A stretch of 40,362 nucleotides of DNA, taken from a phage. Shown one piece after another: positions 3,538-40,362 of this stretch (position 1 is the stretch's first letter; each line of letters begins with the position of its first letter). Made by a program: the position numbers and the translations under genes. Below the pieces are notes generated by a model that worked only from the letters and a program-made list of their open reading frames with translations, was not told the origin of the DNA and did not search any database. The stretch lies in sequence record OZ418233.1, one strand, 5' to 3'.

Positions 3538-5217
3538 ATGGCGGAAACAACTAAAGAGCGATTGAACAAACAGTTCGCACAACTTGAAAGCGAGCGTCAG
3601 TCGTTCGAGCCGCACTGGCGCGAGTTGAGTGATTACATCAACCCGCGTGGTTCCCGCTTTCTGACTTCTGAGGTCAACCGTAACGATCGACGCAATACAC
3701 GCATTATTGATTCGACCGGGACTATGGCGGCGCGCACTCTCGCCAGCGGCATGATGTCAGGCATCACAAGCCCCGCGCGTCCGTGGTTTCGCCTGGCTAC
3801 GCCAGATCCTGAAATGATGGATTATGGCCCTGTTAAGTTGTGGCTTGAGGCGGTGCAGAACCGCATGAACGATATGTTCAATAAGTCGAATCTCTACCAG
3901 TCTCTTCCGCAGTTATACGGAAGCCTCGGCACATACAGCACTGGTGCAATGGCGGTGCTGGAGGATGACGAGGACATCATTCGCACAATGCCATTCCCGA
4001 TAGGCAGTTACTACCTGGCTAACTCACCTCGTGGCAGTGTGGACACCTGTTTTCGCAAGTTCTCTATGACTGTTCGTCAGCTTGTTCAGGAGTTCGGACT
4101 AAATAACGTCAGCGAATCCGTAAAAAGCATGTGGGAAAGCGGCGCCTACGAGAAGTGGATTGACGTGATGCATTCGGTTTACCCGAACATTGACCGCGAT
4201 ACATCGAAGCTGGATAGCAAGAACAAGCCATTCAAATCGGTTTATTACGAGGTTGGTGGCGATAACGACAAGTTGTTGCGTGAGTCCGGATTCGATGAGT
4301 TCCCAATTATGGCTCCGCGCTGGGAAGTTAACGGCGAAGATGTTTATGGATCATCATGCCCGGGTATGCTGGCGCTTGGACCTGTTAAGGCACTGCAGCT
4401 TCTCCAGAAGCGCAAGTCGCAGTTGATTGATAAAGCCACCAATCCGCCGATGGTTGCTCCGACTTCCCTCAAGAATCAGCGTGCCTCCCTTCTTCCTGGC
4501 GACATCACGTATATCGATCAGATTACTGGTCAGGATGGTTTCAGGCCTGCTTATCTGGTTAACCCCAGTACAGCAGATTTGGTGGCAGACATTCAGGACA
4601 CTCGTCAAATCATTAACAGCGCCTACTTTGTCGATCTGTTCATGATGTTGCAGAACATCAATACCCGCTCGATGCCTGTTGAAGCGGTGATCGAAATGAA
4701 AGAAGAAAAACTTCTGATGTTGGGGCCGGTTCTGGAGCGTCTGAACGACGAATGTCTTAATCCTCTCATTGACCGCGCTTTCTCGATGATGGTGCGTAAA
4801 AACATGCTGCCGCCACCGCCTGACGCGATGGAAGGTATGCCCCTGAAGGTCGAATACATTTCTGTCATGGCTCAGGCGCAGAAGTCTATCGGCCTGTCCA
4901 GTCTGGCGTCCACGGTTAACTTCATTGGTCAACTTGCGCAAGCGAAACCAGAAGCTCTCGACAAACTCAACGTTGATCAGGCGATCGATGCATTCGCTGA
5001 TATGTCCGGAGTGTCTCCAACCGTCATTGTTCCGCAGGAACAGGTTGAGCAGGCTCGCCAGCAACGGGCACAGCAACAACAGCAGCAACAAATGATGGCG
5101 ATGGGGATGGCGGCGGCACAGGGTGCCAAGACGCTAAGCGAAGCTAAAACTTCGGATCCGAGTGTTTTGTCAGCTATGGCGAATGCAGTTAGTGGTCAGG
5201 GTGGGCAATCACAATGA
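3538..5217 (+). CDS. portal (head-to-tail connector) protein, T7 gp8-like
   Basis: 559-aa ORF with Q-rich C-terminus (QQQQQQQMMAMGMAAAQG...) as in T7-type connectors; gene order portal-scaffold-capsid. Confidence 0.85.
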   Translation: MAETTKERLNKQFAQLESERQSFEPHWRELSDYINPRGSRFLTSEVNRNDRRNTRIIDSTGTMAARTLASGMMSGITSPARPWFRLATPDPEMMDYGPVKLWLEAVQNRMNDMFNKSNLYQSLPQLYGSLGTYSTGAMAVLEDDEDIIRTMPFPIGSYYLANSPRGSVDTCFRKFSMTVRQLVQEFGLNNVSESVKSMWESGAYEKWIDVMHSVYPNIDRDTSKLDSKNKPFKSVYYEVGGDNDKLLRESGFDEFPIMAPRWEVNGEDVYGSSCPGMLALGPVKALQLLQKRKSQLIDKATNPPMVAPTSLKNQRASLLPGDITYIDQITGQDGFRPAYLVNPSTADLVADIQDTRQIINSAYFVDLFMMLQNINTRSMPVEAVIEMKEEKLLMLGPVLERLNDECLNPLIDRAFSMMVRKNMLPPPPDAMEGMPLKVEYISVMAQAQKSIGLSSLASTVNFIGQLAQAKPEALDKLNVDQAIDAFADMSGVSPTVIVPQEQVEQARQQRAQQQQQQQMMAMGMAAAQGAKTLSEAKTSDPSVLSAMANAVSGQGGQSQ

Positions 5218-5510
5218 CAGATTACGAAGACGATCAACTGAAAGAAGAAAACGCCCGCAAGCAACGTGACATGGCACAGCGTGAAATTGATGACATTCGC
5301 TTTGTCATGAGCAGTGAACAGGGGCGTCGCGTTGTCTGGTCGGTGCTGGAGAAAGGCCGGGTGTTTTCCGCTATCTCTCCGATGGATGCTATGGCAATGG
5401 CATTTAATGAGGGGCAACGCAATCTGGCGCTGGAACTGTTTCAGCGCGTTATGGCGCATTGCCCTGAACAGTATTTGAAGATGGCCAAAGAGGCCAGTGA
5501 ACAGGAGTGA
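5214..5510 (+). CDS. hypothetical head-module protein (98 aa)
   Basis: ATG overlaps portal stop (ATGA); charged, helical-looking sequence between portal and scaffold genes. Confidence 0.45.
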   Translation: MTDYEDDQLKEENARKQRDMAQREIDDIRFVMSSEQGRRVVWSVLEKGRVFSAISPMDAMAMAFNEGQRNLALELFQRVMAHCPEQYLKMAKEASEQE

Positions 5511-5512
5511 TC

Positions 5513-6208
5513 ATGAGTTTATTTGAGCGTTTGCTGTATCGCCGTCTTTGCAATGAGCAACAAGTCGATGGTGGGGCAGCTCCGGCTGCGTCAGAACCGT
5601 CAGCGCATGCAGGTGATAACCCTGCTCCTGTTGGTGATCCATCACAACAGGAAGGTGATAAGCCACAACCTGTTTCTGATGGCGATAAACCTGCTGATGA
5701 CAAAAAGCCTGAAAACGATAAGCAGGATGAAAAAAAGGGCGGCGATAAACCAGAGGGTGCGCCTGAGAAGTACGAGTTTCAGGCTGCCGAAGGCGTAGAG
5801 CTGGATACAGAAGCGTTGAAGGAATTCGAGCCGGTGGCGCGAGAACTAAACCTGACCAACGAGCAAGCGCAAAAGCTGGTTGATGCTTATCCGAAGATTC
5901 TGGCAGGTGTGCAGCAGCGTCAGGCAGAAGCCTGGCAGAAAACAACCGAGCAGTGGGCTGCTGATGTAAAAGCTGACAAAGAAATCGGTGGCGACAAGTT
6001 GATTTCTAACCTTAGCGCCGCACAGCGTGCGCTTGACCAGTTCGGGACACCTGAACTCAAAGAATATCTGAACACCACCGGGCTGGGTAATCACCCTGAT
6101 CTGGTCAAAACGTTCGTGAAAATCGGAAAGGCGATGTCTGAAGATGGCATGGTCACCGGTGGTAATGAAGGCCAGCGTAGTGCGGCCGAAGTGCTCTATG
6201 GCAAATAA
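5513..6208 (+). CDS. scaffolding protein (putative)
   Basis: Highly acidic protein with a long D/E/K/P-rich low-complexity segment, located between portal and major capsid genes; RBS CAGGAG 5 nt before ATG 5513. Confidence 0.55.
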   Translation: MSLFERLLYRRLCNEQQVDGGAAPAASEPSAHAGDNPAPVGDPSQQEGDKPQPVSDGDKPADDKKPENDKQDEKKGGDKPEGAPEKYEFQAAEGVELDTEALKEFEPVARELNLTNEQAQKLVDAYPKILAGVQQRQAEAWQKTTEQWAADVKADKEIGGDKLISNLSAAQRALDQFGTPELKEYLNTTGLGNHPDLVKTFVKIGKAMSEDGMVTGGNEGQRSAAEVLYGK

Positions 6209-6222
6209 GAGAGGAAATGACA

Positions 6223-11494: not shown

Positions 11495-11958
11495 TGATCG
11501 ATGTTCGAATTATTCCCGCTACCGAAGAGCATCTTCAGATGATTTTGCCGGATGTTCGTCAGGCTGATATTGACGAACTGTATGCGGTATCGCTGATGAC
11601 TACCGAAGATGCGCTGCGCGTTGGTCTGCGCACTGCGACTATGGCCTGGTCAGGGTTCGCGAACGGAGAACTGGTAACCATGTTTGGTGTATCTCCGGCG
11701 TCAATGATCGGTGGCAATGGTACACCCTGGCTGGTCGGAACCAGCCGTATTGAAAAATATCAGAAGACATTTCTGCGCCACTGCCGCCCTGTATTGCAGC
11801 AGATGCTGGCAGTTTATCCGCGCCTGGAAAACTACGTCGACGAGCGAAACTATGTTGCCAAAGCATGGCTGCACTGGCTTGGATTCAGGCTTGAAGAGGC
11901 CGCGCCTTATGGTGCTCTTGGTCTTAATTTCCACAGATTTCACATGGAGAGAAAATAA
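11494..11958 (+). CDS. hypothetical virion protein (154 aa)
   Basis: Coupled ORF between tail hub and internal virion protein genes. Confidence 0.4.
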   Translation: MIDVRIIPATEEHLQMILPDVRQADIDELYAVSLMTTEDALRVGLRTATMAWSGFANGELVTMFGVSPASMIGGNGTPWLVGTSRIEKYQKTFLRHCRPVLQQMLAVYPRLENYVDERNYVAKAWLHWLGFRLEEAAPYGALGLNFHRFHMERK

Positions 11959-12503
11959 TGTGCGATCCGGTTATTGCTGGTGGCGCAATGCTCGCCATGA
12001 GTGGCATTCAGGCATACACCCAGTACCAACAGGGAAAGTATGCCTCGAAGGTTGCAGAAGCGAACGCAGATATAGCCACTGCTCAGGCAAATGATGCAAT
12101 AAACATAGGTAACGCTGAAGCTGAGCAACGGCGCAGAGAGACCCGACAGCGGCTTGGTACACAGGCGGCGACAATGGGGGCTACCGGCGCTGATTTATCT
12201 ACAGGTAACGCGCTGGATATATTTGGCGACACTGCTCAGTTTGGCGCTCTTGATGCGCTGACGACGGTGAATAACGCGCAACGCGAGGCTTACGGTTATC
12301 AGGTTCAGGTTGCCAACTATAAAGCAGAAGCCAGTTCAGCCCGTAAACAGGGGAATGTAGGAGCAGCAACAACATTGCTCACTGCGCCTCTGAAGGCATA
12401 CGGTGCGTACCAGATGTTTGGTGGGACGTGGAGTCCGTTTACTCAAAGCACTCCTGCGCCAATCGGGGCAGCAGCAGGAACCAGATTACCCGGAGGATTA
12501 TAA
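11958..12503 (+). CDS. internal virion protein, T7 gp14-like
   Basis: Starts Met-Cys and ends with a Gly/Ala-rich basic tail (APIGAAAGTRLPGGL), resembling T7 gp14 as I recall it; stop overlaps next start (TAATG at 12501-12505). Confidence 0.55.
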   Translation: MCDPVIAGGAMLAMSGIQAYTQYQQGKYASKVAEANADIATAQANDAINIGNAEAEQRRRETRQRLGTQAATMGATGADLSTGNALDIFGDTAQFGALDALTTVNNAQREAYGYQVQVANYKAEASSARKQGNVGAATTLLTAPLKAYGAYQMFGGTWSPFTQSTPAPIGAAAGTRLPGGL

Positions 12504-14932
12504 TGCCAGTCGTACCAACAGTATCCGGACGTCAGGTTGAGAGTCGTGGAGTTCAGTCAGCAGGCTTGCAGACGTTTTCTCAGCCAGGTATTGGTGATGC
12601 TTTTGTTCGGGCAGGGACAGAGGCAATTGATGTTTTGGGGCAGGCAAAACAGCGTGCCAATATCGCTCTGGCTCAGGAGGCATCTCTTAACCTCAGTCAG
12701 ATAAGCAGCGATCTGCTGAATAATCCTGAAACAGGATTGCTTAACCTGAAAGGGAAAAATGCTATTGGAAAAGGCCATGAGTATACGCAGCAGTTTGATG
12801 CTCAGGTCGAACAACTGGCTATGTCGCTGCCGGATGAACAGGCTCGTAATGCTTTCATGCAGCAGGCGCAGCAGCAGCGTATTCAGTTCACTACGCAGGC
12901 CGGGCGGCACGAGATAGGGCAAATAAATGCCTACGAAGAAGGCCAGTTTCAGGCTACACTGCTGAACAATGGTAAAAATGCCGCAGCATTGTATGGCGAC
13001 AACGCCGCATACGTATTGGCTAACAAGCAAACTTTCCAGCAAATTGAGGAGTACGGTGTTGCACATGGCTGGAGCAACGAGCAAATCCAGGCCAAGAAAA
13101 TCGAGTTTAAAGAGAAGGTTGCTGATGCTGCATTGTCCCAGTGGTCGGCAAACAATGCGACCGCATTCATCCAAAGTAATGGCGAGTTAAGTGATACTGC
13201 TGCTGGAGCTCGCCGTGCTGTAGCAGATAGTGACTCTTCCGAGCGTGCCCGTGGCATACGCAACAATAACCCAGGAAATCTCGAATACAGCAAAACTAAT
13301 CCGTGGGTAGGCCAGACCGGTGATGATGGTCGATTTGCTAAATTCGAAACACCTGAACACGGGATTCGTGCATTAGGGCGGAACCTGATGTCGTATCAGA
13401 GGCAGGGTATTGATACCGTCAGCGAGATAATTAATCGCTGGGCACCGCCTACTGATAAAAATGACACTATGTCGTATATCAAAGCAGTGTGCGAACAACT
13501 TGGCGTTTCTGCTGATGAGCCTCTCGATGCATCTAATCCTGATACCCTGAAGGCGCTTTGTGCAGCCATTATCCATCATGAGAACGGTAGCCAGCCATAC
13601 AGTGATCAGCAGTTAACTGCTGGTGTCAGTGCAGCACTTGGTTTATCAACAATTCCAACCAACATCAAACGCTATACCGGTAATGCAGCATTCGATGCGG
13701 CATCTCCTGAGGCGCAGGCAAGTTTTATGCGACAGGCGGATCAACTGCGTCGGCAGCAGCAGGCTGAATATAAAACGATGATTGACAGCCAGGTTCGCGA
13801 TGCGACAGCTGCGTATATGCGTGGCGTTGAATTTCCTAACCCACCTGGTGAGGCTGATTTTATTGCAGCTTATGGAGTCAGAGAAGGAAACCTGCGATAT
13901 ACCGAGTTCAGAAATGCGCAAATCGCCGGACAGTATATAGGCTCTTTCCGCAACATGCCGACAAGCAGCATTACATCATATGTTGAGCAATTACGCCCGG
14001 ATACTGGTGAGACAGGGGAGGGTTATGCGGCACGAGCCGCTCTTTATGACAACGTTGTGTCGGCTGCAAGTCAGGTGATAAAGCAGCGACAGGCTGATCC
14101 TGTACAGTTCTCTCTTGCCGCCGGACAGGCAAAGCCTATCGACATGAGCAATAAGGATAACTTTGGACAGAGCGTTGCCTTGCGTGCCGCTCAGGTCAGT
14201 GACCTTGCTAAGTCATATGGCACTCCACTGACGTTCTTTTCCAAAGACGAGGCCAATCAGATCGGTGTTTTCTTTCGTGATGCGCCCGTTTCCCAACAGG
14301 CAGCATATCTCGATACCATCAGGCAGAGCACTGGTGGTGGGCAGGTGTATATGTCAGCACTACAGCAGATCAGTGCCAACGCTCCATCTGCTGCCGTTGC
14401 CGGGATACTGATGGATAAGCCAGGTGGTATTTTGGCAGAAAAAAACTGGTTTAATCCGGATGTTTCCGTGTCTCCTGAAACCGCTGCGCAGACAATTCTT
14501 GCTGGCGCGGCGGCTCGTAAAGGTACTGATGACGCGAAAGGTATTCCGATGCCTAAAGATGCTGATCTTCGCCTTGAGTTTTCTGACATGGTGAAGGATG
14601 CATTTGCTGGTGATGCTCAGGGGGCATCAATGGCATACGAGATCGCAAAGGACTATTACGCTGGTGTGATGGCGAAAAAAGGCGTGGTATCAGGCGAAAT
14701 TGACAATGATATCTGGAAACAGGCTGTTAACGTAGCTACAGGTGGCGTGCATGACTATAACGGAATGGGGAATGTTCTTTTGCCGTGGGGAATGTCTGCA
14801 GAGCAATTCGATAAGCAGGTTAATCAGGCTTGGAATGAACAAGTTGTTGGCACAGGGATAAAAACACCGCCTGGTCAGTATGGTGAACCGCCCCGGGAAT
14901 CCTGGAGACTAAACTTCCTGAGAAAGAGGTAA
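12503..14932 (+). pseudogene. large internal virion/ejection protein gene, 3' end disrupted by IS insertion
   Basis: Reading frame runs into the IS left end at 14884 and stops at an IS-internal TAA (14930-14932); the original reading frame resumes in frame after the IS (16197-16329). Contains motif RNNNPGNLEY, which may mark a cell-wall-hydrolase-like domain (unverified). Confidence 0.7.
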
Positions 14933-14937
14933 ACAGG

Positions 14938-15264
14938 ATGACTAAAAATACTCGTTTTTCCCCCGAAGTCCGTCAACGGGCAGTCCGTATGGTTCTGGAA
15001 AGTCAGAGCGAATATGACTCACAATGGGCGACAATTTGTTCCATTGCTCCAAAGATTGGCTGTACGCCGGAGACTCTGCGTGTCTGGGTTCGCCAGCATG
15101 AGCGGGATACCGGGGGCGGTGATGGAGGGCTCACCACCGCTGAACGTCAGCGTCTGAAAGAGCTGGAACGTGAAAATCGTGAACTGCGCCGCAGTAACGA
15201 TATCCTTCGCCAGGCTTCCGCTTATTTTGCGAAGGCGGAGTTCGACCGCCTCTGGAAAAAATGA
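14938..15264 (+). CDS. IS3-family transposase OrfA (HTH)
   Basis: 108 aa ending in a leucine-zipper-like segment ([25 protein letters not shown]); overlaps orfB in the -1 frame as in IS3 elements. Confidence 0.85.
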
Positions 15265-16151
15265 TGCCACTGCTGGATAAGCTGCGTGAGCAGTACGGGG
15301 TCGGACCGCTATGCAGCGAACTGCATATTGCCCCGTCAACGTATTACCACTGTCAGCAACAGCGACATCATCCGGATAAACGCAGTGCCCGTGCGCAGCG
15401 CGATGACTGGCTGAAGAAAGAGATACAGCGCGTATACGATGAAAATCACAAGGTATACGGTGTGCGTAAAGTCTGGCGTCAGTTGTTACGGGAAGGTATC
15501 AGAGTGGCCAGATGCACTGTGGCACGTCTCATGGCGGTTATGGGACTTGCCGGTGTTCTCCGGGGTAAAAAGGTCCGTACGACCATCAGCCGGAAAGCCG
15601 TTGCCGCAGGCGACCGCGTAAACCGTCAGTTCGTGGCAGAACGACCTGACCAGCTGTGGGTGGCTGATTTTACTTACGTCAGCACATGGCGGGGCTTCGT
15701 CTATGTGGCGTTCATCATTGATGTGTTTGCCGGATACATCGTGGGGTGGCGGGTCTCATCGTCCATGGAAACGACATTCGTGCTGGATGCACTGGAGCAG
15801 GCGTTATGGGCCCGTCGACCGTCCGGCACGGTCCATCACAGTGATAAAGGTTCTCAGTATGTATCGCTGGCCTACACACAGCGGCTTAAGGAAGCCGGAT
15901 TACTGGCATCAACAGGAAGTACAGGCGACTCGTATGACAACGCGATGGCGGAGAGCATCAATGGTCTTTACAAAGCGGAGGTAATACACCGTAAGAGCTG
16001 GAAAAACCGTGCAGAAGTGGAACTGGCCACACTCACGTGGGTGGACTGGTATAACAATCGACGATTGCTGGAAAGGCTGGGCCATACTCCTCCGGCAGAA
16101 GCAGAAAAAGCTTATTATGCTTCCATCGGAAACGATGATCTGGCAGCCTGA
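15261..16151 (+). CDS. IS3-family transposase OrfB (DDE integrase-like catalytic domain)
   Basis: 296 aa with rve-type features (WVADFTYV..., HSDKGSQY..., [15 protein letters not shown]); overlaps orfA, consistent with programmed frameshift expression. Confidence 0.85.
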
Positions 16152-16193
16152 GTTCACAGATAAAACACTCTCCAGGAAACCCGGGGCGGTTCA

Positions 16194-16329
16194 TGGTTTG
16201 CAAAGTTACGGCGATAGTCAGTACCTGGTGAAACTTGGTACTGGTTATCTGCTAAAAGATGATGGTTCTCCCGTTGTTCTTGATCTGACACAGAAGCGTC
16301 AGAGATTCTCCGGAGATATTCCGAAATGA
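16194..16329 (+). other. displaced 3' remnant of the IS-disrupted internal virion protein gene
   Basis: In-frame continuation (…GLQSYGDSQYLVKLGTGYLL…) whose stop TGA overlaps the ATG of the next gene at 16326 (ATGA), preserving the original translational coupling. Confidence 0.7.
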
Positions 16330-18128
16330 GTTACTTTGGCCTTAATCCAGTAAACCAGAATCAGCAGCTTGACGAAGCAGCATCAAATCCAGTTGGCTTT
16401 AACAGCGATGTTGGTTTTTTCGACAATGCTGTAGGAGCGGCATTGTCTGGTTTGTACTCCGGGCTGGTGGCAAAGCCTGATCAGTTGCTCTGGGCAGGGA
16501 TGGATAAAATCGTATCCCCGATTGCTCAGTTTGTTAACGAAAACACCTCGCTCAATGACACTTCAGTTTCATACATTGCCGAGCAGAGAAAACTAGCAGA
16601 GCAGCAGGTTAAGCGGCTGACGCCTGATGCCGCGACAACCGGAACCGCCGGGCAGGTTCTTTATGGGTTGTTCGATATGGGCGGGCAGGCTGTTATCGGT
16701 ACAACGCTCGGTGGTCCGGTCGGAGGTGCTGCGGCGGTAACTTCGCTACAGGGTTTTTCTGAGTTTGAACGGCTGACAGCACAGGGTGTTGATTTCAGGA
16801 CGGCGCAGGAAGCGGGATTAGTGCAGGGTATTACTGCTGGTGCCGGAACACTGATCCCTATGAGCCTCGGGTTACGTGCTGGTGGTGCGCTGGCGGAAGG
16901 TGTGGCGGCTCAGCTTGCGCGGACGGGTGAAAGTTCAGTGCGACGCGCCGCAGCAACAGCAGTACGTGCAACGCCAGATATTGCCTATGCCGCAGGTACA
17001 AATATTGCGTTCGGTATGGCACAGCGTGGGCTTACTGCAAAAACGCTTCGTGATGGTGGCTATAGCGAAATGGCTAACCAGTATGATGTGTTGGATCGAC
17101 AGGCAATTGCTATTGATGCTGTTCTTGGGGTGGCGTTTGGTGGTGTCGGCAGATTTATTAACTCTCGCGGCGAGTCTACAAGCGCACCAAATTTTTCACC
17201 AGTTGATATCGATGCTGCACTGGCGGCGAATGCCGCTCATCATGCTGAAATTGATATTGCTCCCGGCGTTCCGATCAACGTGCTTTCGCGTAATTCGCAC
17301 ATTCAGGCTCTGCGAAAAGCCATGTCTGATGTTAGCCAGGGGAGACCTGTAGACGTTGCCAGCATTGTTGAGTCTGCATCTTTCAGTGAAATTCCTGGGC
17401 GTAAGAGTCTGCTGTCTCAGGCAGTTAATGAGGCTCTGTCATCTGTAGATGATGGAGTAACGGCGCGCGCTATAGAAAATCGGTTGCTTGAAGAACAGGC
17501 CGCGCAGCTTTTGCCGCGTGGCGATAGACAGGTTTACCAGTCTGAAATCGCTAATAGCCAACGAATTATTGAAAATCTCACTGAACAGCGCGCACAAATT
17601 CTTGCAGAAGAGCCAACCGGTAGCGGTAAGGCTTTATCTCGTGCTCGATCAGATAAACAGGCCAGACTTCGCGATATTGACCAACGAATCCGGCAGGTAC
17701 AAGAACGCTTGGAATTTTCCCGTAACGCGTTGGCACCGCATGAGCCTGGCGGTCAGTTTTTTGAAGCTCGAGCAGAACTGGCACGGCGACAGCAGGCAGA
17801 AAGTGAACTTAATGCTCAGGCTGTTTCATTCTATAAAACAGCAGAGGTCAGGACGCCAGACGAAGTAGCTCCTTTTGAGCCCGGTAAGATATTGCAACAG
17901 ACAGAACAAAAAATGATGTCAGATCAGGCAGGAGATATTGATCTGCGCATAGCTGAAGACTCGCTGCTTGAATCACCTGACATGATAATCACCGTGCTGG
18001 ATGATGATGGTAATCCACAATCGCGCAGTGCGCGTGAAGTACTGGATGAAACGAACAGGGAAAGTGAGCAGGCAATACAGGATTCCAGCCTGTTTGATGT
18101 CGCTGTGGCGTGTTTCTTGAGAGGTTAA
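16326..18128 (+). CDS. internal virion/ejection protein (600 aa)
   Basis: Large Ala/Gly-rich protein in the ejection-protein block after the gp14/gp15-like genes. Confidence 0.45.
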   Translation: MSYFGLNPVNQNQQLDEAASNPVGFNSDVGFFDNAVGAALSGLYSGLVAKPDQLLWAGMDKIVSPIAQFVNENTSLNDTSVSYIAEQRKLAEQQVKRLTPDAATTGTAGQVLYGLFDMGGQAVIGTTLGGPVGGAAAVTSLQGFSEFERLTAQGVDFRTAQEAGLVQGITAGAGTLIPMSLGLRAGGALAEGVAAQLARTGESSVRRAAATAVRATPDIAYAAGTNIAFGMAQRGLTAKTLRDGGYSEMANQYDVLDRQAIAIDAVLGVAFGGVGRFINSRGESTSAPNFSPVDIDAALAANAAHHAEIDIAPGVPINVLSRNSHIQALRKAMSDVSQGRPVDVASIVESASFSEIPGRKSLLSQAVNEALSSVDDGVTARAIENRLLEEQAAQLLPRGDRQVYQSEIANSQRIIENLTEQRAQILAEEPTGSGKALSRARSDKQARLRDIDQRIRQVQERLEFSRNALAPHEPGGQFFEARAELARRQQAESELNAQAVSFYKTAEVRTPDEVAPFEPGKILQQTEQKMMSDQAGDIDLRIAEDSLLESPDMIITVLDDDGNPQSRSAREVLDETNRESEQAIQDSSLFDVAVACFLRG

Positions 18129-18133
18129 ATTAA

Positions 18134-20608
18134 ATGAGACAGGAATGTATACAAGCGGTCCAGCAGGCGGCGCAGCGCACGTTAACGGCGCGAGAAATAC
18201 AGAACATTGAAGACCGCATTTATCGCAATATGCGCTCCATTGCTCGTGATGACCCTATGTCGTGGCGACAACTTTCCGAGTCAGAGCGGCTGTATCGTGC
18301 AGCACAATTGGCATCTGAAGAATTACAGCGAGAAGCGGCATTAAAGAAACGTCGTGTGGCTCTTACTATAGCCGCACGTCAGAGATTGGATAAATTTATC
18401 AATAGCTATCAAGGGGCTGATGGGAAACTTGGCGCTCTTAACCGTACTATTGCTTTTAATGCAGACGGTAAATCGAATTTCCTCTCTGTTGAGTCCAGAA
18501 CAAAAGCCACTCGTGATTATGCATTGAGTCAATTGCAGGAGGCATTTGAAGCAGTTGATCCTCGCTTTTTTGGCCTGTTTGAAGATGAAGCTGGCGTGCG
18601 TGACCTGGTATATGAAATGCGAGGGCAAAATACTGGCAATGCTAAAGCAAGAAAAGGTGCTAAGGCGTGGAGAGAAGTGACAGATCTACTGCGCCGCCGG
18701 TTTAATGATGCTGGTGGGGACATTGGCTATCTCGAAAACTGGGGGATCCCTCAACATCATTCTATGGAAAAGGTTGGGACGGTATCAAAAGATAAATGGG
18801 TTAGCGATGTTATAGGTAAGCTGGATCGCAAATATTATACCCGAGCCGATGGACAACTGATGAACGATGCCGAGTTGTCTGCATTTCTTGGAGAGGCTTA
18901 TAACACGATCGCTACTGGTGGGCTGAATAAGCTTACTGATACCGGAATGCGAATTTCCGGCGCACGTGCTAACCGTGGTAATGCATCACGACAGATACAT
19001 TTCAAAGATGCAGATTCCTATCTGCAATATCAGCAACTTTATGGCGATCGCTCTCTATGGGAAATCATGGTCGGTCACCTTGAAGGTATCAGTAAAGATA
19101 TTGCACTGGTGGAAACATATGGCCCAAACCCCGATCATGTTTTCCGCTCTCTTCTTGATCAGGTGAAGGCAGAAACGGCAACAGCTAACCCGAGTAAAAC
19201 CGGTAAAGTCGAGCGGCTGGCGAACAACACAGAGAATCTGTACAACTTTATTTCCGGAAAGACACAGCCTGTAGCGAATCCGCACATCGCGCGATGGTCT
19301 GACAATATCCGCAACTGGCTGGTTGCCAGCAGACTCGGATCCGCGTTGCTGTCATCGTTCTCTGATCTTGGAACCATGTATCTGTCTGCGAAGGTTACCA
19401 ACCTTCCAATGAACCAGTTATTCCGCAACCAGCTTGAAGCTATGGACCCAACGAACCGTACAGAACTTGCGCGGGCGCGCCGCGCTGGTCTGGCGATGGA
19501 ATCTCTACTTGGCAGCGTTAACCGCTGGGCGATGGATAATATGGGGCCGTCTGTGTCTCGTTGGGCTGCAACGGCGGTGATGCGTGCCAGTGGGCTTACA
19601 GCATGGTCAGATGCGCACAAGCGCGCCTATGGCGTAACCATGATGGGAAGCCTGGGAGAAGTAGTGTCACGGACACCAGACCTTCGTAGCCTCGATGATT
19701 CTGATTTTCGTATCCTGAAAAGCAAAGGGATTACTGACACAGACTGGAGCGTATGGAAGCTGGCGCAACAGGAGGACTGGGGGAACGGCAATAATACGAT
19801 GCTGACACCGGAAAGCATTATGCGTATCCCTGATTCAGCAGTTAAACATCTTGGTGAGCCTGAACGCGTGAAATTTGAGGCAATGCGTAAACTGCTCGGT
19901 GCCGTAACTGAAGAAGTTGATATGGCTGTTATTACACCGGGAGCACGTGAGCAACTGATAACCGGTTCTGGTATTCAGCGTGGAACATGGAAAGGTGAAT
20001 TAACGAGAAGTGTTTTCCTGTTTAAATCGTTCCCTATCTCGGTGGTTATGCGTCACTGGTCACGCGCTATGGGTATGCCGTCTGCTGGTGGGCGTGCGGC
20101 ATATATTGCGACGTTTATTGCCAGTACGACCATTCTTGGCGCTTTGTCGCAGCAACTTAACGACCTTGCGTCTGGTCGTAATCCTCGCGAGATGACAGGA
20201 GAAGATGCTGCTAAATTTTGGCTTGGTGCTCTACTGAAAGGTGGTGGTCTTGGCCTTTACGGTGACTTTTTATTGTCAGATCACACTAGGTACGGAAGCG
20301 GCGCGCTGGCGTCGATGCTTGGCCCGGTAGCTGGTCTGGTTGATGACGTAGTGAAGATTGCTCAGGGCATACCGTTAAATGCTGTGGAAGGGAAGAATGA
20401 GCAGACTGGTGGTGATCTGGTTAAGCTGGGGAAAGGTCTGATGCCAGGTGCGAATCTCTGGTACTTAAAGGCGGCTCTCGATCACATGATCTTTAACCAG
20501 ATGCAGGAGTATTTTTCACCAGGTTATTTGCGTAAAATGGAGCAACGTTCGAAGAAAGAGTTTAACCAGACATACTGGTGGCGACCACAGGATGTCACTC
20601 CGCAATAA
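18134..20608 (+). CDS. large internal virion/ejection protein (824 aa)
   Basis: Last and largest gene of the virion core block; hydrophobic C-terminal segments; RBS GAGAGG upstream. Confidence 0.45.
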   Translation: MRQECIQAVQQAAQRTLTAREIQNIEDRIYRNMRSIARDDPMSWRQLSESERLYRAAQLASEELQREAALKKRRVALTIAARQRLDKFINSYQGADGKLGALNRTIAFNADGKSNFLSVESRTKATRDYALSQLQEAFEAVDPRFFGLFEDEAGVRDLVYEMRGQNTGNAKARKGAKAWREVTDLLRRRFNDAGGDIGYLENWGIPQHHSMEKVGTVSKDKWVSDVIGKLDRKYYTRADGQLMNDAELSAFLGEAYNTIATGGLNKLTDTGMRISGARANRGNASRQIHFKDADSYLQYQQLYGDRSLWEIMVGHLEGISKDIALVETYGPNPDHVFRSLLDQVKAETATANPSKTGKVERLANNTENLYNFISGKTQPVANPHIARWSDNIRNWLVASRLGSALLSSFSDLGTMYLSAKVTNLPMNQLFRNQLEAMDPTNRTELARARRAGLAMESLLGSVNRWAMDNMGPSVSRWAATAVMRASGLTAWSDAHKRAYGVTMMGSLGEVVSRTPDLRSLDDSDFRILKSKGITDTDWSVWKLAQQEDWGNGNNTMLTPESIMRIPDSAVKHLGEPERVKFEAMRKLLGAVTEEVDMAVITPGAREQLITGSGIQRGTWKGELTRSVFLFKSFPISVVMRHWSRAMGMPSAGGRAAYIATFIASTTILGALSQQLNDLASGRNPREMTGEDAAKFWLGALLKGGGLGLYGDFLLSDHTRYGSGALASMLGPVAGLVDDVVKIAQGIPLNAVEGKNEQTGGDLVKLGKGLMPGANLWYLKAALDHMIFNQMQEYFSPGYLRKMEQRSKKEFNQTYWWRPQDVTPQ

Positions 20609-20804
20609 GGAAGTGTTGTGTTTTTAATTATTTTGAGTGTGATAATTTCTGGTGGATTGTTATTTATTGACCGCTACAAATATTTTCTTAACCCTCAGAC
20701 TCAAGCTATTTGCTGGTTCATCTTTGTTGTGCAGGGAGTCGTTCTTGTTGCAAGCCTTATTGAGGGGAGGCCTCTTATTTTTACTGGGTAAATTAGGTGA
20801 CTAC

Positions 20805-21101
20805 ATGCAAGCTATAGGATTCATTGTTTATATCGTCGTTGGTCTTTTTCAGTTGGCAGCAATTATGGCTGGGCTTGAATCATGGTGGGGATTGCACTGG
20901 ATAATTGCAGCCCCCATTGCTTTCATCGTGAGCTATATTCCATTTGTTGGAGCGATTGTTGGTATGGTTGGCGCTGTGGATGTATGGCGGTGGGAGTGGT
21001 GGCAGGCTGGCCTTCTCTTCTTTGGTGGGATCATCTTTGCTATTGTCTGCGGTGGAATGTCATCATTTTTCGAATGGCTAGCATTCAGAAAAGGAACGTG
21101 A
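20805..21101 (+). CDS. small integral membrane protein (99 aa)
   Basis: ATG 20805 preceded by AGGTGA; about three hydrophobic helices; followed by a strong terminator. The longer ORF from 20652 lacks an RBS. Confidence 0.5.
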   Translation: MQAIGFIVYIVVGLFQLAAIMAGLESWWGLHWIIAAPIAFIVSYIPFVGAIVGMVGAVDVWRWEWWQAGLLFFGGIIFAIVCGGMSSFFEWLAFRKGT

Positions 21102-21110
21102 CATGTCACA

Positions 21111-21134
21111 GGCCGCTTTCGCGGCCTTGTTTTT
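21111..21134 (+). terminator. intrinsic terminator
   Basis: GGCCGC-TTTC-GCGGCC hairpin followed by TTGTTTTT. Confidence 0.65.
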
Positions 21135-21294
21135 AACGAATGCCACCGCCTCCCGGGCGGGAATCCGCAGAACGCCCACCGCAGCGGGAGCCGTCAGCGG
21201 CAGTATCGCTGTCGTGCTGACAACGACCGGCAAAGGCCTGAGTTGAAGCTACCAGAGACAACAAAACGAACAGTGCAGCAAATGCTTTTTTCAT
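21133..21294 (-). CDS. small secreted/lipoprotein-like peptide (53 aa)
   Basis: Internal Met of the 77-aa ORF gives MKKAFAALFVLLSLVASTQAFAG..., a signal-peptide-like N-terminus; weak RBS; uncertain gene. Confidence 0.3.
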   Translation of the reverse strand: MKKAFAALFVLLSLVASTQAFAGRCQHDSDTAADGSRCGGRSADSRPGGGGIR

Positions 21295-21387
21295 TGTGAA
21301 ATTTCCATCTATAAGCCACCTCAATGTGGCGTCAATGAGTGTAGCACTGACTTTTGTTTCGTCCACAAAAAATCCCGCAGCGCGGGC

Positions 21388-21831
21388 TTATTCTTCTTCT
21401 TCATCATTAAAAAGCGGATTGTTGTTTCCATCTGATGAAAGGAAAGGTATGTGTTCTCTTGAAAATCCAACAATGACAATTTCATTATCATTTTTTGCAT
21501 AATGAATGCATTCATTAGAATGCATTCCGCCAGGGTTGAAATTTAAGTTAATGGTATAATTCTTAAATGTGTTTGGATACCATGTTGGCCCACAATGATA
21601 ATGCCAATAATTCTCTTGCTCATAATTGTCTGAGCCGGGAATTTTATCATGGTTATCATCAACCCACGAGGGCTTGTTTTTTCCAACAAGCGCCCTTCCA
21701 TTGGCAACATCCTCTAAAAACCTTTGTATGATTTTTATTTCATCATCAGTAAGGAAAGGTCCGTCTACAGCGAAAGGGGTGTTGCTTTCCCCATGTAGAA
21801 AACTATTAGATATTCTAATGTTAAACTTCAA
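21388..21831 (-). CDS. hypothetical acidic protein (147 aa), AT-rich
   Basis: TTG start with RBS CAGGAG 7 nt upstream; visibly low GC versus flanks; strongly acidic (poly-E C-terminus); clustered His/Cys (HYHCGP, NECIHY); no family recognised. Confidence 0.5.
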   Translation of the reverse strand: MKFNIRISNSFLHGESNTPFAVDGPFLTDDEIKIIQRFLEDVANGRALVGKNKPSWVDDNHDKIPGSDNYEQENYWHYHCGPTWYPNTFKNYTINLNFNPGGMHSNECIHYAKNDNEIVIVGFSREHIPFLSSDGNNNPLFNDEEEE

Positions 21832-21851
21832 GGAAAACTCCTGATGTGCTT

Positions 21852-22019
21852 CTATTTGGAGCGAAATGCCGCCTTGAAGTCGCTAAAAGATGTTCCTGTC
21901 TGGTAAACCATATCCTTGTCGCGCTCTTTGCTTGCGCGACCAAGCATAACTTTTCCAATGACATCCCAGCATTGCTTGGCTTGTTCATTGTGCTGAGTAC
22001 GATTTTTCAACGCTGTCAT
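21852..22019 (-). CDS. hypothetical small protein (55 aa)
   Basis: Not in the supplied ORF track (below 60 aa); found by reading the minus strand: ATG with strong RBS AAGGAGG, translation MTALKNRTQHNEQAKQCWDVIGKVMLGRASKERDKDMVYQTGTSFSDFKAAFRSK, stop 21 bp upstream of the 147-aa gene. Confidence 0.35.
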   Translation of the reverse strand: MTALKNRTQHNEQAKQCWDVIGKVMLGRASKERDKDMVYQTGTSFSDFKAAFRSK

Positions 22020-22031
22020 ATCGCGCCTCCT

Positions 22032-22046
22032 TTACCTTTAAGGTAA
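22032..22046. promoter_or_regulatory. operator-like motif TTACC-TTTAA-GGTAA
   Basis: Perfect copy of the shared palindrome, 13 bp upstream of the 55-aa gene start, directly after a -10-like TAATAT on the minus strand. Confidence 0.55.
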
Positions 22047-22112
22047 TATTACGCGAATCTACATCACATCGCCAATGATTATTTTAAAGGCACATCCCTG
22101 TGCCGCCGCCCG

Positions 22113-22799
22113 TCAGAAGAACCCTGCTTTGTCGTTGATGTACTCCGCGTGGGTCTGGATATCACGCAGGCATTTGCTCACACCAACGATGTAGCAGAAC
22201 ATGGTGGTCAGCTCCGCCGCCGCTCCCGATACGTCGTGCCCGTCGTCCTGTAACTGGTTCAGCAGATTCATCAGCAGTGAGTTCTCCGTCAGGCCGAGAA
22301 CACCAGACGGCGAATGAATCAGGCTACGGTAGCCGGGCTTCAGTGGGGCGCTGTAGGTTTTGTTCTCTATCTTCATTGCCTGCATCACTGCTGACGCCGT
22401 GGCGTTGGCTACCTGGTCGGCAACCATCTTTATGCGTTCTTCTTGCGGGAGCGAGTTTTTAATGTAACTTCCGGTGCGGCGGATCTGAGGAAGAACCTCA
22501 CCTGTAACCCATTTACGAAAGCGGTATGGGATAGTGCCTGGTGTCACCGCATCGCGGCAGCGGAGGATCAGTGTGTAGAGGCCTGACTCGTTGATAATAT
22601 TGGTTTCGCCTTGACGGCCTAAGTTAAATTTAGCCCTTTCATCATCATCAAGAGATTTTATTGACATAGTGGGGTTTGTCAGTTGAAGAGCTTTAATAAC
22701 GTCTTTGGCAACAAACCAAGGATTTCCATCAATAACAATGGCTCGAATGGTTGCTTCTGATTCAAAATGAAAAACAGATGGGGTTACGTTAGCAGTCAT
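22113..22799 (-). CDS. Bro-N domain protein (antirepressor-like), 228 aa
   Basis: From internal ATG with RBS AGGTGA: MTANVTPSVFHFESEATIRAIVIDGNPWFVAKDVIKALQL... is a Bro-N-type N-terminal domain; C-terminal about 65 aa is paralogous to the small protein at 23945-24217. Confidence 0.7.
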   Translation of the reverse strand: MTANVTPSVFHFESEATIRAIVIDGNPWFVAKDVIKALQLTNPTMSIKSLDDDERAKFNLGRQGETNIINESGLYTLILRCRDAVTPGTIPYRFRKWVTGEVLPQIRRTGSYIKNSLPQEERIKMVADQVANATASAVMQAMKIENKTYSAPLKPGYRSLIHSPSGVLGLTENSLLMNLLNQLQDDGHDVSGAAAELTTMFCYIVGVSKCLRDIQTHAEYINDKAGFF

Positions 22800-22952
22800 A
22801 GTGATCACCTTTGTAGTTAGGTTAATCACCACTACCGACGCCAATCGGTTGGTGGTGAACTGTGCAGGGTTGGCGTAACCGGCTACAAAGGACCCGGCGC
22901 ACCTTTCGGTGCCCCCACACAGCCCACCATAGAATAGGTGCGCTTTACACAT

Positions 22953-22971
22953 AAAAAAACCGCTTATGCGG
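22953..22971 (-). terminator. candidate terminator/attenuator in the leader upstream of the Bro-N gene
   Basis: On the minus strand: GCCGCATAAGCGG hairpin followed by TTTTTTTA; lies between the operator/promoter region (about 23060-23080) and the Bro-N start. Confidence 0.3.
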
Positions 22972-23065
22972 CATATGTGCCTCTGTAGTAATCCGGGACG
23001 CCAATCCCGGCACTGGATTTTGCCAGTGCCCGATTACTATGGCACAAGAGGAGTGCGATGTAAAT

Positions 23066-23080
23066 TTACCGTAAAGGTAA
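23066..23080. promoter_or_regulatory. operator-like motif TTACC-GTAAA-GGTAA
   Basis: Perfect palindrome; on the minus strand it follows a -35/-10-like pair (TTGATT, 18 bp, TATCAT). Confidence 0.55.
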
Positions 23081-23158
23081 TGATAAGCGCGAAGAAACAT
23101 TAAAATCAACCGTATTTGGTTGATTGCGTTTAACGCTTGATCACCTGAAAGCAAGATA

Positions 23159-23173
23159 TTACCTTTAAGGTAA
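23159..23173. promoter_or_regulatory. operator-like motif TTACC-TTTAA-GGTAA
   Basis: Perfect palindrome 20 bp upstream of the ATG of the 242-aa gene. Confidence 0.55.
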
Positions 23174-23193
23174 TGTTATTGTGAGGAAAAGCA

Positions 23194-23922
23194 ATGGAAG
23201 TTTTCTGGATAGTTGTTGGTGTGGTTGCGGTGATTATTTACGTTATCAACCAGAACAAGACTAAGATCTCTGATCGTACGGTCGTTAATCATAACAAAAC
23301 GATAAAGACCGAAGATGGGGAGATAACGATTAATCGTACACAGGTGATAGAACACACCTCTACTCAGTTTCAAAAAACTGGAGGTAATGCGCCTAATATT
23401 TCCGCACCTCCTGCTTATGATAGTGCGGTAATCCAGACATATTATAAACAGCAGGAGTTAGCAAAAGAGAGGCAACTGATTCAGCCAAAGCCGTTTACAG
23501 CTGAGATTCCACCTGGAGTGTCAACGCGTCCGGCATATCATGGAAGATTCCCTGGTGATGACATATCGTCTCAGTCATCTAAAAAAGCACCTCAGGCAAT
23601 ATCAGAGCCAGCAAGAATACCTTCTGTATCGCCGCCAAAAGAAGAATCAGCTAACAGAGTTTCAAGTGGTAGCAAGCAGTGCTTGCGATGCAGAATAAAC
23701 CTTCCATATGAAAAATTCAGGAAATCGTCAAAAAATCCAGATGGATTGACTAAATGGTGTGCAAGGTGTCTCGATGGCCCAAAGAATACACGCCATATGA
23801 AGTGGTGCCCAATTTGTAATGTCCGCAGAAAACGAACCAGCTTTTACCCTAATAATCAAAATGCGGACGGCTTAATGGCATGGTGCAAAACGTGCTGGGA
23901 TGAGCACAAAGCGAAACGATAG
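23194..23922 (+). CDS. membrane-anchored protein with two CxxC zinc-ribbon-like pairs (242 aa)
   Basis: RBS GAGGAAAA; N-terminal hydrophobic helix followed by basic residues; Pro/Ser-rich linker; C-terminal C-x2-C repeats (CLRC, CARC, CPIC, CKTC). Confidence 0.55.
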   Translation: MEVFWIVVGVVAVIIYVINQNKTKISDRTVVNHNKTIKTEDGEITINRTQVIEHTSTQFQKTGGNAPNISAPPAYDSAVIQTYYKQQELAKERQLIQPKPFTAEIPPGVSTRPAYHGRFPGDDISSQSSKKAPQAISEPARIPSVSPPKEESANRVSSGSKQCLRCRINLPYEKFRKSSKNPDGLTKWCARCLDGPKNTRHMKWCPICNVRRKRTSFYPNNQNADGLMAWCKTCWDEHKAKR

Positions 23923-23944
23923 GCCGCTCTTGCGGCCTTTAAAT

Positions 23945-24217
23945 TTACCGGGTTTGTTTTCGTAATTGTTCGGCACAATAGTCGAGATGTGTTTGCAGAT
24001 CCCGCATAGACATCTGTGAGCTGGTGACGTAGTTAATCAGTGCAGTCAGTTCGGCAAGTGGGCCATCGACATTAAATCCATCCTTATCGAGATCCCGGAG
24101 TAATTTCATCAAGTGCGATCCCTCCACCAGTGACTTGACGCCTCCCGGCGTGTGAATCCTTTCGGTAAATCCGTCTTCCAGTGGATAGTGATACTGCTGC
24201 ATCTTAATCTTCTCCAT
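23945..24217 (-). CDS. small antirepressor-like protein (Bro C-terminal-domain paralog), 85-90 aa
   Basis: About 45% identical by eye over 60 aa to the C-terminus of the Bro-N protein (…LAELT…RD[IL]QTH…); second ATG at 24202 has RBS GGAGAAG; LexA-box-like palindrome immediately upstream. Confidence 0.55.
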   Translation of the reverse strand: MEKIKMQQYHYPLEDGFTERIHTPGGVKSLVEGSHLMKLLRDLDKDGFNVDGPLAELTALINYVTSSQMSMRDLQTHLDYCAEQLRKQTR

Positions 24218-24221
24218 GCAA

Positions 24222-24243
24222 TAACTGTATATTTATACAGTAT
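24222..24243. promoter_or_regulatory. LexA (SOS) box candidate
   Basis: TAACTGTATATTTATACAGTAT contains CTGT-N8-ACAG with AT-rich spacer, one mismatch from the E. coli consensus TACTGTATATATATACAGTA as I recall it; located just upstream of the small antirepressor-like gene. Confidence 0.65.
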
Positions 24244-24279
24244 CAAATAATTTGTTTGCTATCCAGCACGTTTTGCAAA

Positions 24280-24294
24280 TTACCTAAAAGGTAA
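24280..24294. promoter_or_regulatory. operator-like motif TTACC-TAAAA-GGTAA
   Basis: Perfect palindrome in the divergent intergenic region between the small antirepressor-like gene and the tailspike gene. Confidence 0.55.
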
Positions 24295-24398
24295 TATCTA
24301 TTTATATTCACAGTATTTCTATCCATATGTGGTTTTTCAGGTAATAGAATAACCAGATATGCGGCGCAACGGGTGCTGCGACTATCTGGAGATTTAAC

Positions 24399-26588: not shown

Positions 26589-26881
26589 TTAAGAGCATTG
26601 ATGTCACTCCATTTCTTCACTCGCTTTGCGCTTTTGCGGCTCAGGTACTGGTTGGTATTTTTACCGGAAACTGGGCTTACGGTGCGATAGCCGGTTGTAC
26701 GTTCTTCATTGCGCGTGAACACACCCAGGCAGAATATCGCTGGATAGAAAAGTTTGGGAAAGGGAAACGTATCAACATGCCGTGGTGGGGAGGTTTTGAT
26801 CCACGCGTGTGGGATGTGGGAAGTCTGTTGGATTTTGCTGTTCCTGTTGTTTTTTGTTTTTGTGTTTATTTCTCTATTTGA
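26585..26881 (+). CDS. membrane protein, possible holin-class lysis protein (98 aa)
   Basis: ATG overlaps tailspike stop (ATGA); two or three hydrophobic helices; first gene of the lysis cassette block. Confidence 0.4.
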   Translation: MIKSIDVTPFLHSLCAFAAQVLVGIFTGNWAYGAIAGCTFFIAREHTQAEYRWIEKFGKGKRINMPWWGGFDPRVWDVGSLLDFAVPVVFCFCVYFSI

Positions 26882-27083
26882 CTGCTACCGCGCCATTAAA
26901 TGGTGCGGTATTCAACCTGCTCTTCACTGTTTGTTTCTTCAGAGTCATGTAAAAGGTGAGCTTTATTCTCGGCATGAAAAACAGGGAATTGACGATGTTA
27001 AAGTAACAAAAAACCATAAATGGTTTATTATGCGTAATGCTTTACTGTTCAGGAGGTTGTTATGCATATAAACGGTGGAAAAC

Positions 27084-28896: not shown

Positions 28897-29046
28897 TTTC
28901 CGGTGACGGTATATAAAACGGTACGGTGAAAATCAGGTTACAGAAAGTTGTTACCAGTCAATTGGTTATGCGTGCCGTAAATAATTGAGTGGGAATGATT
29001 AACAGCTAACTCATAGCAAGTCATTCCTATTCAGATACTAATTTAA

Positions 29047-31985: not shown

Positions 31986-32927
31986 TTACATAGATGTTTC
32001 GTTTAATTCTTCCCGACGAACGCTGTAAACGTCGGTGGCTTTTGCCAGCAGTTCGTCATCATCTGAAAGTTTTTGTGCAATGTATTTGTAAGCCTTATCC
32101 AGTTCGGAGACAGTGCTGTAATTCATCGCTGCGCTGGTAAAGGCCATCAGCATTTCTTCTGGATCACGGCTATCCGCTTTACGAGTTTGCTCATCAGGCT
32201 TTTTCACTGGTTTAGCGTTGATCAGACTGTTCATTCCCGCAGCAGTGGTCGTTTGCGGAGTAATGTCTCGCTCAACGCGCGGTGCCGTTTCCTGTAATTC
32301 GTCTGGTGTGTAGACGCCCATGATTACGTCAGGACAGTGCAAGCGAGACCAGCGTTTTGTCGCAAGGTATGCGAGTTGTTGTTTCGGATCACTGGCCCAA
32401 AGTGTGGAGTTTCTTACCTGTGCTTGAGACAGCATTAACTCAAGCACTCGAGGTTGATCCTCGCCCTTCATGGTTGCCCATACGCGAACACCGCAGCCTT
32501 CTTCGTCTTTTAGAGTCCAGCCTGGTGCGATATATGGATTGCCGTTTTTGGATTTTTTCTCAACAAACTTACCGATCACGCGTTCCCACGGCCCGAACCA
32601 CTCGTAGTTGATGCGATCTTTTGTTGGCGACATCGTTGAGATAACTGCGTTTACTAATTGGGCTTCATAACCTAGCGTGCCGTTCACAACATGGGTTTTC
32701 TGAGCCACGGCAAACGGGTTCATTCCCCACTGCGCAGCCTGCATTGCCACGGCCATGCAATCAGCTGGTTTCCCGGCGAGGTGCGCCGGTACCGTTACGC
32801 GGCTTTGCGCCATTACCTCGGCGAATTTCATCAGTTGGTTCAAGCCGTCTGGGCTGAAAATAGTTGCAGCAGTTCCAGCGATTGCTGTGTCTACTGGTGC
32901 GTTGATGTTTGCGATGTCGTTGCTCAT
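31986..32927 (-). CDS. recT: RecT-family single-strand annealing recombinase
   Basis: About 313 aa from ATG 32927 (ATGA overlap with upstream exonuclease stop, RBS AGGAT); paired with an upstream exonuclease gene as in RecE/RecT-type modules. Confidence 0.7.
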   Translation of the reverse strand: MSNDIANINAPVDTAIAGTAATIFSPDGLNQLMKFAEVMAQSRVTVPAHLAGKPADCMAVAMQAAQWGMNPFAVAQKTHVVNGTLGYEAQLVNAVISTMSPTKDRINYEWFGPWERVIGKFVEKKSKNGNPYIAPGWTLKDEEGCGVRVWATMKGEDQPRVLELMLSQAQVRNSTLWASDPKQQLAYLATKRWSRLHCPDVIMGVYTPDELQETAPRVERDITPQTTTAAGMNSLINAKPVKKPDEQTRKADSRDPEEMLMAFTSAAMNYSTVSELDKAYKYIAQKLSDDDELLAKATDVYSVRREELNETSM

Positions 32928-40322: not shown

Positions 40323-40362
40323 CATGTTACGAGTAGATTATGCATGATGAATTTGATGGGTT

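Follow-up and report, generated by a model that had tools for sequence, protein, structure and literature searches.

An IS629 insertion in the epsilon15 gene 15 ortholog of a phiV10-like Escherichia coli phage

Sequence record OZ418233.1, a stretch of 40,362 nucleotides of phage DNA that was analysed whole (the window), carries an insertion sequence (IS), IS629, inside a late-operon gene for a virion internal protein, the ortholog of gene 15 of phage epsilon15 (called gene 15 below, and its downstream neighbours genes 16 and 17). The locus raises the question of how and when this gene was split, and of what the split leaves of the phage. Our answer, which we hold with considerable confidence, is that IS629 recently hit the gene 15 ortholog and broke its coupling to the next gene, with infectivity probably poor as a result and the other functions of the phage intact.

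The element occupies positions 14884–16193 (1310 bp; first letters TGAACCGCCCCGGG, last letters CCCGGGGCGGTTCA), bounds that were read directly within 14700–16500 and checked by script, and it is flanked by two copies of TGG (Table 1), as the first-pass annotation of this DNA had described. A target-site duplication of 3 bp agrees with the 3–4 bp reported for IS629 (PMC3271280) and expected of an IS3-family element. The two copies are not a chance 3-mer, because two loci whose flanks are 100% identical to those of the window, L005 and L021, have one TGG and no IS; phiV10 gene 18 also has one TGG at the corresponding site. Joining 12503–14883 to 16197–16329 gives 2514 nt, or 837 sense codons and a stop codon with no internal stop, which puts the insertion point at codon 794 of an 837-codon gene. 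The first-pass annotation had held that this gene could be reconstructed exactly, with the proviso that the continuity of the reading frame might come from misread coordinates. Every coordinate was confirmed by script, and a natural counterpart of the reconstructed 837-residue protein, with no residue different, is encoded on 192 public contigs (P0135).

The interrupted gene has as its orthologs phiV10 gene 18 (gp18) and epsilon15 gene 15, the second of which is annotated as 'putative lytic transglycosylase'. When reconstructed, it equals phiV10 gene 18 (YP_512272.1) in length at 2514 nt, with 99.4% nucleotide identity and 7 amino acid differences, and phrog_992 matches residues 1–832 of the protein (E = 0), a full-length homology to the family. 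Profile and relative comparisons therefore uphold the earlier description of a virion internal protein gene. The open reading frame (ORF) still starts at the ATG at 12503, which overlaps the stop codon of the preceding gene, and now ends at a stop codon inside the left end of the IS. Codon 794 remains a glycine codon, its third base being T both before and after the insertion. The injection protein loses 43 residues (795–837) and gains 15 new ones; the first-pass annotation was right that IS-encoded residues are added and one too high in its count of 16, as the 16th IS codon is the stop. It also placed the last 44 codons at 16197–16329. That location stands, and the content is one base, 43 sense codons and the stop codon. 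The ATGA overlap that it reported lies at 16326–16329, with the ATG of the next gene starting at 16326 and the TGA of the remnant at 16327–16329.

Residues 249–382 of the injection protein are predicted to form a peptidoglycan-hydrolase domain, with matches to the Protein Data Bank entries 9vvp_L (Gp29; E 6.5e-38) and 7q47_A (endolysin; E 2.7e-17); a Pfam scan of the 809-residue chimera returned no domain. The 43 lost residues fall in the C-terminal domain phrog_35810 (residues 637–837). They contain a motif, G-D/N-x-Q/K-Y-x-V ... G ... dG-x-P-x-V/I, which aligns in the homologs of epsilon15, SPN1S, Klebsiella, Enterobacter, Pseudomonas, Ralstonia and Acinetobacter and is carried by 8/8 relatives.

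Loci with an empty site, which were reached through the downstream gene product, bear on the age of the event. L005 (OZ039537.1) matches the window at 100% identity over 9,872 bp on one side of the IS and 11,936 bp on the other, and strain 118UI, a urinary isolate of sequence type 69 (ST69; PMC8900328), does so over 4,598 + 12,808 bp. On the sequences compared, the insertion is real, simple and very recent, the last because the window shows zero substitutions relative to these empty-site siblings over 17–22 kb. The view that the event was recent, taken in the first-pass annotation from the TGG duplication and the undamaged inverted repeats, is thus strengthened by identical flanks (21.8 kb for L005 and 17.4 kb for 118UI). 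The comparison that it had proposed, with relatives that lack the insertion, found neither IS nor split in them. A gene split in related phages in which no IS is present, the case that it had named as contrary to its reading, was not seen; in the relatives, the gene is uninterrupted and encodes 678–937 residues.

The allele that bears the IS was located solely through an exact-protein look-up of the chimeric ORF. The exact 809-residue chimera (WP_307722265.1; for example, HmCmsJML061) occurs on 16 contigs, three of them >1 Mb, from at least two sources, and the allele has therefore propagated and is not a one-off. One locus, L003, lies on a contig of 5.08 Mb and matches the window at 100% identity across 22,430 bp, IS included; some of the IS-bearing contigs are integrated chromosomal prophages. 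Searches of RefSeq complete E. coli genomes, INPHARED phages, IMG/VR, Genome Taxonomy Database (GTDB) representatives and Joint Genome Institute (JGI) metagenomes did not find the exact left junction; in IMG/VR, the 31-mer of the empty site is found in 111 contigs and the IS junction in 0. The phage that carries the insertion is temperate, a phiV10-like podophage that integrates at guaA and is found in human extraintestinal pathogenic E. coli such as ST69.

The inserted element itself has all the defining features of IS3/IS629 that can be tested in sequence. Its ends, TGAACC...GGTTCA, form the imperfect 5′-TG...CA-3′ repeats of this group, its length is that of IS629, and the inverted repeats, called undamaged in the first-pass annotation, are complementary at 23/25 terminal positions. 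A query with the 1310 bp matched 168 phage records at ≥80% coverage, and at 100% coverage the element is 99.5% identical to copies annotated as 'IS3 family IS629' in Shiga toxin (Stx) phages. The annotated IS629 of LC567824.1 differs at 6 of 1310 nucleotides, a near-identity that bears out the earlier call of an IS629-like element at 14884–16193. OrfA (108 aa) and OrfB (296 aa) are full-length, each with one substitution relative to LC567824.1, and orfB lies in the −1 frame with respect to orfA (start positions modulo 3 of 0 and 1), which is the two-ORF arrangement of IS3 elements. A programmed −1 frameshift signal, also characteristic of IS3/IS629, is predicted: RF01497, the ALIL pseudoknot, is matched with 120.2 bits (E 3.5e-32; gathering score, 50), and slippage by −1 on the A6 run, when modelled, yields an uninterrupted OrfAB of 404 residues. 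IS1203 and IS3411 are isoforms of IS629. The sole pointer to transposition activity of this copy, an indirect one, is the identical IS at a second site in the sibling prophage L007. A 100% identical IS629 also lies beneath the annotated integrase gene in AF017626.1 (731–2040; Escherichia phage 21 int region, strain EC38), so that there, too, this variant of the IS disrupts a prophage gene.

The insertion separates two genes that are normally contiguous. The stop codon of gene 15 and the start codon of gene 16 overlap in 8/8 relatives, by 1, 4 or 22 nt, a conservation that argues for translational coupling of gene 15 to gene 16, which the IS would abolish. Upstream of the gene 16 ATG, the closest stop codon now belongs to orfB (16151) and lies 175 nt away, and 1.3 kb of largely untranslated IS now lies between genes 15 and 16. 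Since orfB would be translated mainly by frameshifting, about 1 kb of the RNA would be poor in ribosomes and therefore open to Rho. The first-pass annotation had suggested, with due hedging, polarity on the two downstream genes and a phage that is defective and still inducible; both suggestions are plausible because the lost C terminus and the stop/start overlap are each conserved. Nonsense mutants in epsilon15 genes 15, 16 and 17 reportedly give non-infectious particles (as Guichard et al. 2013 are said to have found).

The comparisons show that a resident, intact IS629, with a copy-out/paste-in DDE transposase made through −1 frameshifting, transposed into codon 794 and duplicated TGG. The late operon would still be transcribed through the IS, as no convincing intrinsic terminator was found in it, and the orthologs of genes 16 and 17 would probably be less expressed, through the lost coupling and possibly through Rho-dependent polarity in orfB, which would be poorly translated. 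Assembly or function of the truncated protein is probably poor. The resulting particles would be poorly infectious or non-infectious, with the functions for excision, replication, packaging and lysis intact; podophages need their ejection proteins in order to infect (PMC8954989). The most likely outcome appears to be a phage that can still be induced and whose infectivity is reduced or lost, and it would be the usual first step in the grounding of a prophage by an IS.

Several observations weigh against this account and lend themselves to another, in which the insertion is tolerated: the truncated protein works, read-through and the ribosome-binding site of gene 16 supply gp16 and gp17, and an infectious phage carries IS629 as cargo that is spread between strains. 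The loss amounts to 43/837 residues and spares the predicted catalytic domain, which may leave a working protein. A GGAG is still present about 10 nt upstream of the gene 16 ATG, and scans of 14500–16700 gave no convincing intrinsic terminator (+ strand) or outward promoter in the IS, their results being no better than those of shuffled controls. The allele is present in isolates from at least two sources, for which clonal descent and infectious spread are both possible.

The form of the record bears on the same question. Members of this phage family integrate in the chromosome at the guaA 3′ end, where the genes run xseA–guaB–guaA and then int, and chromosomal copies lie between guaA and the yfgI side. 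A 17-bp core, ATTGAGTGGGAATGATT, identical to the guaA 3′ end, is found at window positions 28984–29000, where phage DNA flanks it on both sides (attP); in L010 and 118UI, by contrast, bacterial DNA lies on one side. The window therefore represents an excised or circular form, or a re-circularized record, and not a chromosomal slice. It is circularly permuted, beginning at the terS start codon and ending (40323–40362) with phiV10 bases 1–40, as expected of a genome that is circular or derived from virions. At 40,362 bp, it falls inside the genus range of 38.4–41.8 kb, so packaging would not be obviously prevented, and all its other genes are intact. The attP configuration fits excision competence and is not proof of it; together with the genome size, it means that the window may derive from excised or even packaged DNA.

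What speaks against a tolerated insertion is, first, that the lost motif is conserved in very distant homologs and retained by 8/8 relatives, and that a family-wide start/stop coupling to the next gene is destroyed. Moreover, both carriers with readable context are integrated prophages, IMG/VR, INPHARED phages and JGI metagenomes have no copy of the junction, and the attP form could be the product of mere computational re-circularization. We consider tolerance unlikely, though well short of negligible. A low probability likewise attaches to the wider proposition that a phage with the IS can still infect and, by packaging IS629, carries it from one E. coli lineage to another, with truncation and lost coupling both tolerated and the window, in its attP form with terS first, representing DNA from virions, or, in a weaker variant, that repeated hits in the ejection module (in the window and in L007) reflect selection for grounding in ST69-like hosts.

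A further possibility is that selection favours IS629 hits in the ejection module: they would ground the prophage and do away with its lethal or infectious outcome, without costing the host the immunity and surface-modification functions. This idea draws on L007 (CACRWT010000001.1), a prophage with a 100% identical backbone in which the same 1310-bp IS copy, in the same orientation (L007:6122–7431), has been inserted independently 2.4 kb upstream, in the gp14-like gene. That insertion lies at the equivalent of window 12444–12446, has its own CAA duplication and shortens the T7_gp14-family protein from 181 to 163 aa. Another inactivating lesion is found in L008 (CP090319.1), where a deletion of ~2.5 kb, equivalent to ~3678–6222, has taken most of the portal gene, p08 and the protease gene; the lesions of L007 and L008 are independent lesions of the same young prophage. 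However, there are only two IS events, which makes statistics impossible and precludes any claim of targeting. IS629 prefers prophages anyway, the target sites in L007 and the window, the two compared, share no common motif, and of the 24 longest contigs that were read for the prophage, 21 were grouped under the intact, IS-free arrangement represented by L005. Selection for such hits is, in our estimation, quite improbable. In a further sibling, L006 (CP164715.1), small indels are present and the protease and gene 15 ORFs are not called, which may reflect long-read assembly errors.

It is scarcely credible that the IS got into the record through a chimeric assembly or a misjoin, or that the split is an old feature of the family: multicopy IS elements confuse short-read assemblies in general and nothing further favours the idea, an artefact is ruled out by the same junction in a 5.08-Mb contig (100% over 22.4 kb) and 15 other contigs, with the perfect target-site duplication and simple insertion also speaking against it, and an ancient split is ruled out by the uninterrupted gene of all relatives.

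Table 1. Features of the interrupted late-operon region, with positions in the window
Feature	Position	Strand	Evidence or remark
IS629, complete, IS3 family	14884..16193	+ (same direction as the phage late operon)	1310 bp; named-element match
Left terminal inverted repeat	14884..14908	+	23/25 positions pair with the right end
Right terminal inverted repeat	16169..16193	-	Scripted end check
IS629 orfA, 108 aa	14938..15264	+	Pfam HTH_Tnp_1 (PF01527)
IS629 orfB, 296 aa	15261..16151	+	Pfam HTH_21 (PF13276) and rve DDE integrase core (PF00665)
Predicted programmed -1 frameshift region: A6 run then TGA, plus ALIL pseudoknot	15219..15335	+	Rfam RF01497
Left TGG target-site duplication	14881..14883		Empty sites of L005 and L021 with single TGG
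Right TGG target-site duplication	16194..16196		Direct reading and scripted check
Truncated chimeric ORF, 809 aa: residues 1-794 of the injection protein, 15 IS-encoded residues and stop	12503..14932	+	
Displaced 3′ remnant: third base of codon 794, codons 795-837 and stop	16197..16329	+	ATGA overlap with next gene kept
Predicted peptidoglycan-hydrolase domain, aa 249-382, intact, upstream of the IS	13247..13648	+	PDB sequence matches
Upstream internal virion protein gene, 181 aa, intact; ortholog of phiV10 gp17 / epsilon15 gp14	11958..12503	+	Pfam PF24072 T7_gp14; phrog_418
Ortholog of epsilon15 gp16 / phiV10 gp19, 600 aa, intact; upstream translational coupling lost	16326..18128	+	
Ortholog of epsilon15 gp17 / phiV10 gp20, 824 aa, virion structural protein, intact	18134..20608	+	

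On the + strand, a further ORF of 106 codons (16009–16329) begins with GTG within the right end of the IS and continues in frame into the remnant to end at the ATGA; one assembly annotates a 70-residue version of it as a gene (L003 13615–13827). This ORF is a candidate only, which, if translated, could partly restore coupling to the next gene. Many E. coli prophages (matches P0001–P0120) carry a 935-residue variant of the injection protein, ~98 residues longer than the 837-residue form and 97–99% identical to it over the shared parts. The RefSeq 'hypothetical protein' WP_307722265.1 (809 aa) is this chimera, cut short by the IS, and its entry is best marked as that of a pseudogene.

The closest known counterparts of the interrupted gene, phiV10 gene 18 and epsilon15 gene 15, share with it the position in the late operon, the hydrolase domain and the C-terminal motif, and differ from it in not being interrupted at codon 794. 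Its neighbours also follow the known order, with a T7_gp14-family gene, the injection protein gene and the gp16 and gp17 orthologs in succession. The cluster resembles the T7 gp14/gp15/gp16 ejectosome in that its first gene is of the T7_gp14 family and one of its products is large and bears a hydrolase domain. However, the lytic transglycosylase of T7 gp16 is N-terminal, whereas the predicted hydrolase domain here lies in mid-protein (aa 249–382) and belongs to another lysozyme family (7q47 / 9vvp), and no sequence homology of the window proteins to T7 gp15 or gp16 was detectable. In epsilon15-like virions, the injection protein may serve in the core or in the tail tube.

As for the element, the window copy and the IS629 of O157 Stx phages (for example, LC567824.1) are alike in length (1310 bp), ends, OrfA and OrfB sizes and ALIL pseudoknot. 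Nothing of substance differs; the window copy is a minor variant, found in a non-O157 (ST69-type) prophage. In O157 genomes, 62% of IS629 copies lie within prophages, and IS629 insertions in O157:H7 prophages differ between closely related strains (PMC3271280). The insertions in the Sp and SpLE prophages of O157:H7 involve the same IS, the same preference for prophages, a short target-site duplication and inactivated phage genes, and among the IS629 records compared is an annotated example 'interrupted by IS629'. The window departs from the O157:H7 cases in that its phage is an epsilon15-like podophage and not lambdoid, and in its different host lineage. The event is thus of an already known kind, with IS629 behaving as documented in a known phage genus and a known gene; a literature search that combined phiV10 and IS629 found nothing.

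The biological interest of a routine event of this sort is modest. It does, however, provide a natural before/after pair, an identical backbone with and without the IS, and a third sibling with the IS in the adjoining gene. This isogenic series could be used to test the function of the epsilon15 gp15-type C terminus and the weight of gp15–gp16 coupling, and to ask whether IS629 insertions ground prophages or ride along. The IS junction could also serve as a lineage marker.

Taken whole, the window holds a complete phage genome, in the same gene order as that of Escherichia phage phiV10 (Uetakevirus) and collinear with it. The structural, lysis, integration, recombination and replication genes of phiV10 are all present and, with the exception of the interrupted gene, intact; replacements relative to phiV10 affect part of the early region and the module for tailspike and surface modification. 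The host-range module (20611–27012) differs from that of phiV10, with a 729-residue tailspike (24399–26588) whose similarity to the O157-specific phiV10 tailspike is confined to ~162 N-terminal residues (67% identity). The window phage is further unlike phiV10 in lacking an O-acetyltransferase, no homolog of phiV10 oac being found in the window. Its host-range module is 100% identical in five human isolates, including the ST69 strain 118UI.

On the minus strand, a RecT-like gene (31986–32954) and a RecE/DUF3799-like gene (32924–33745; 273 aa) are separate, overlapping ORFs, as they also are in other prophages of the phiV10-like family. The phiV10 record annotates a single, 586-residue 'RecE-RecT fusion', which may be due to a frameshift or sequencing error in that record.

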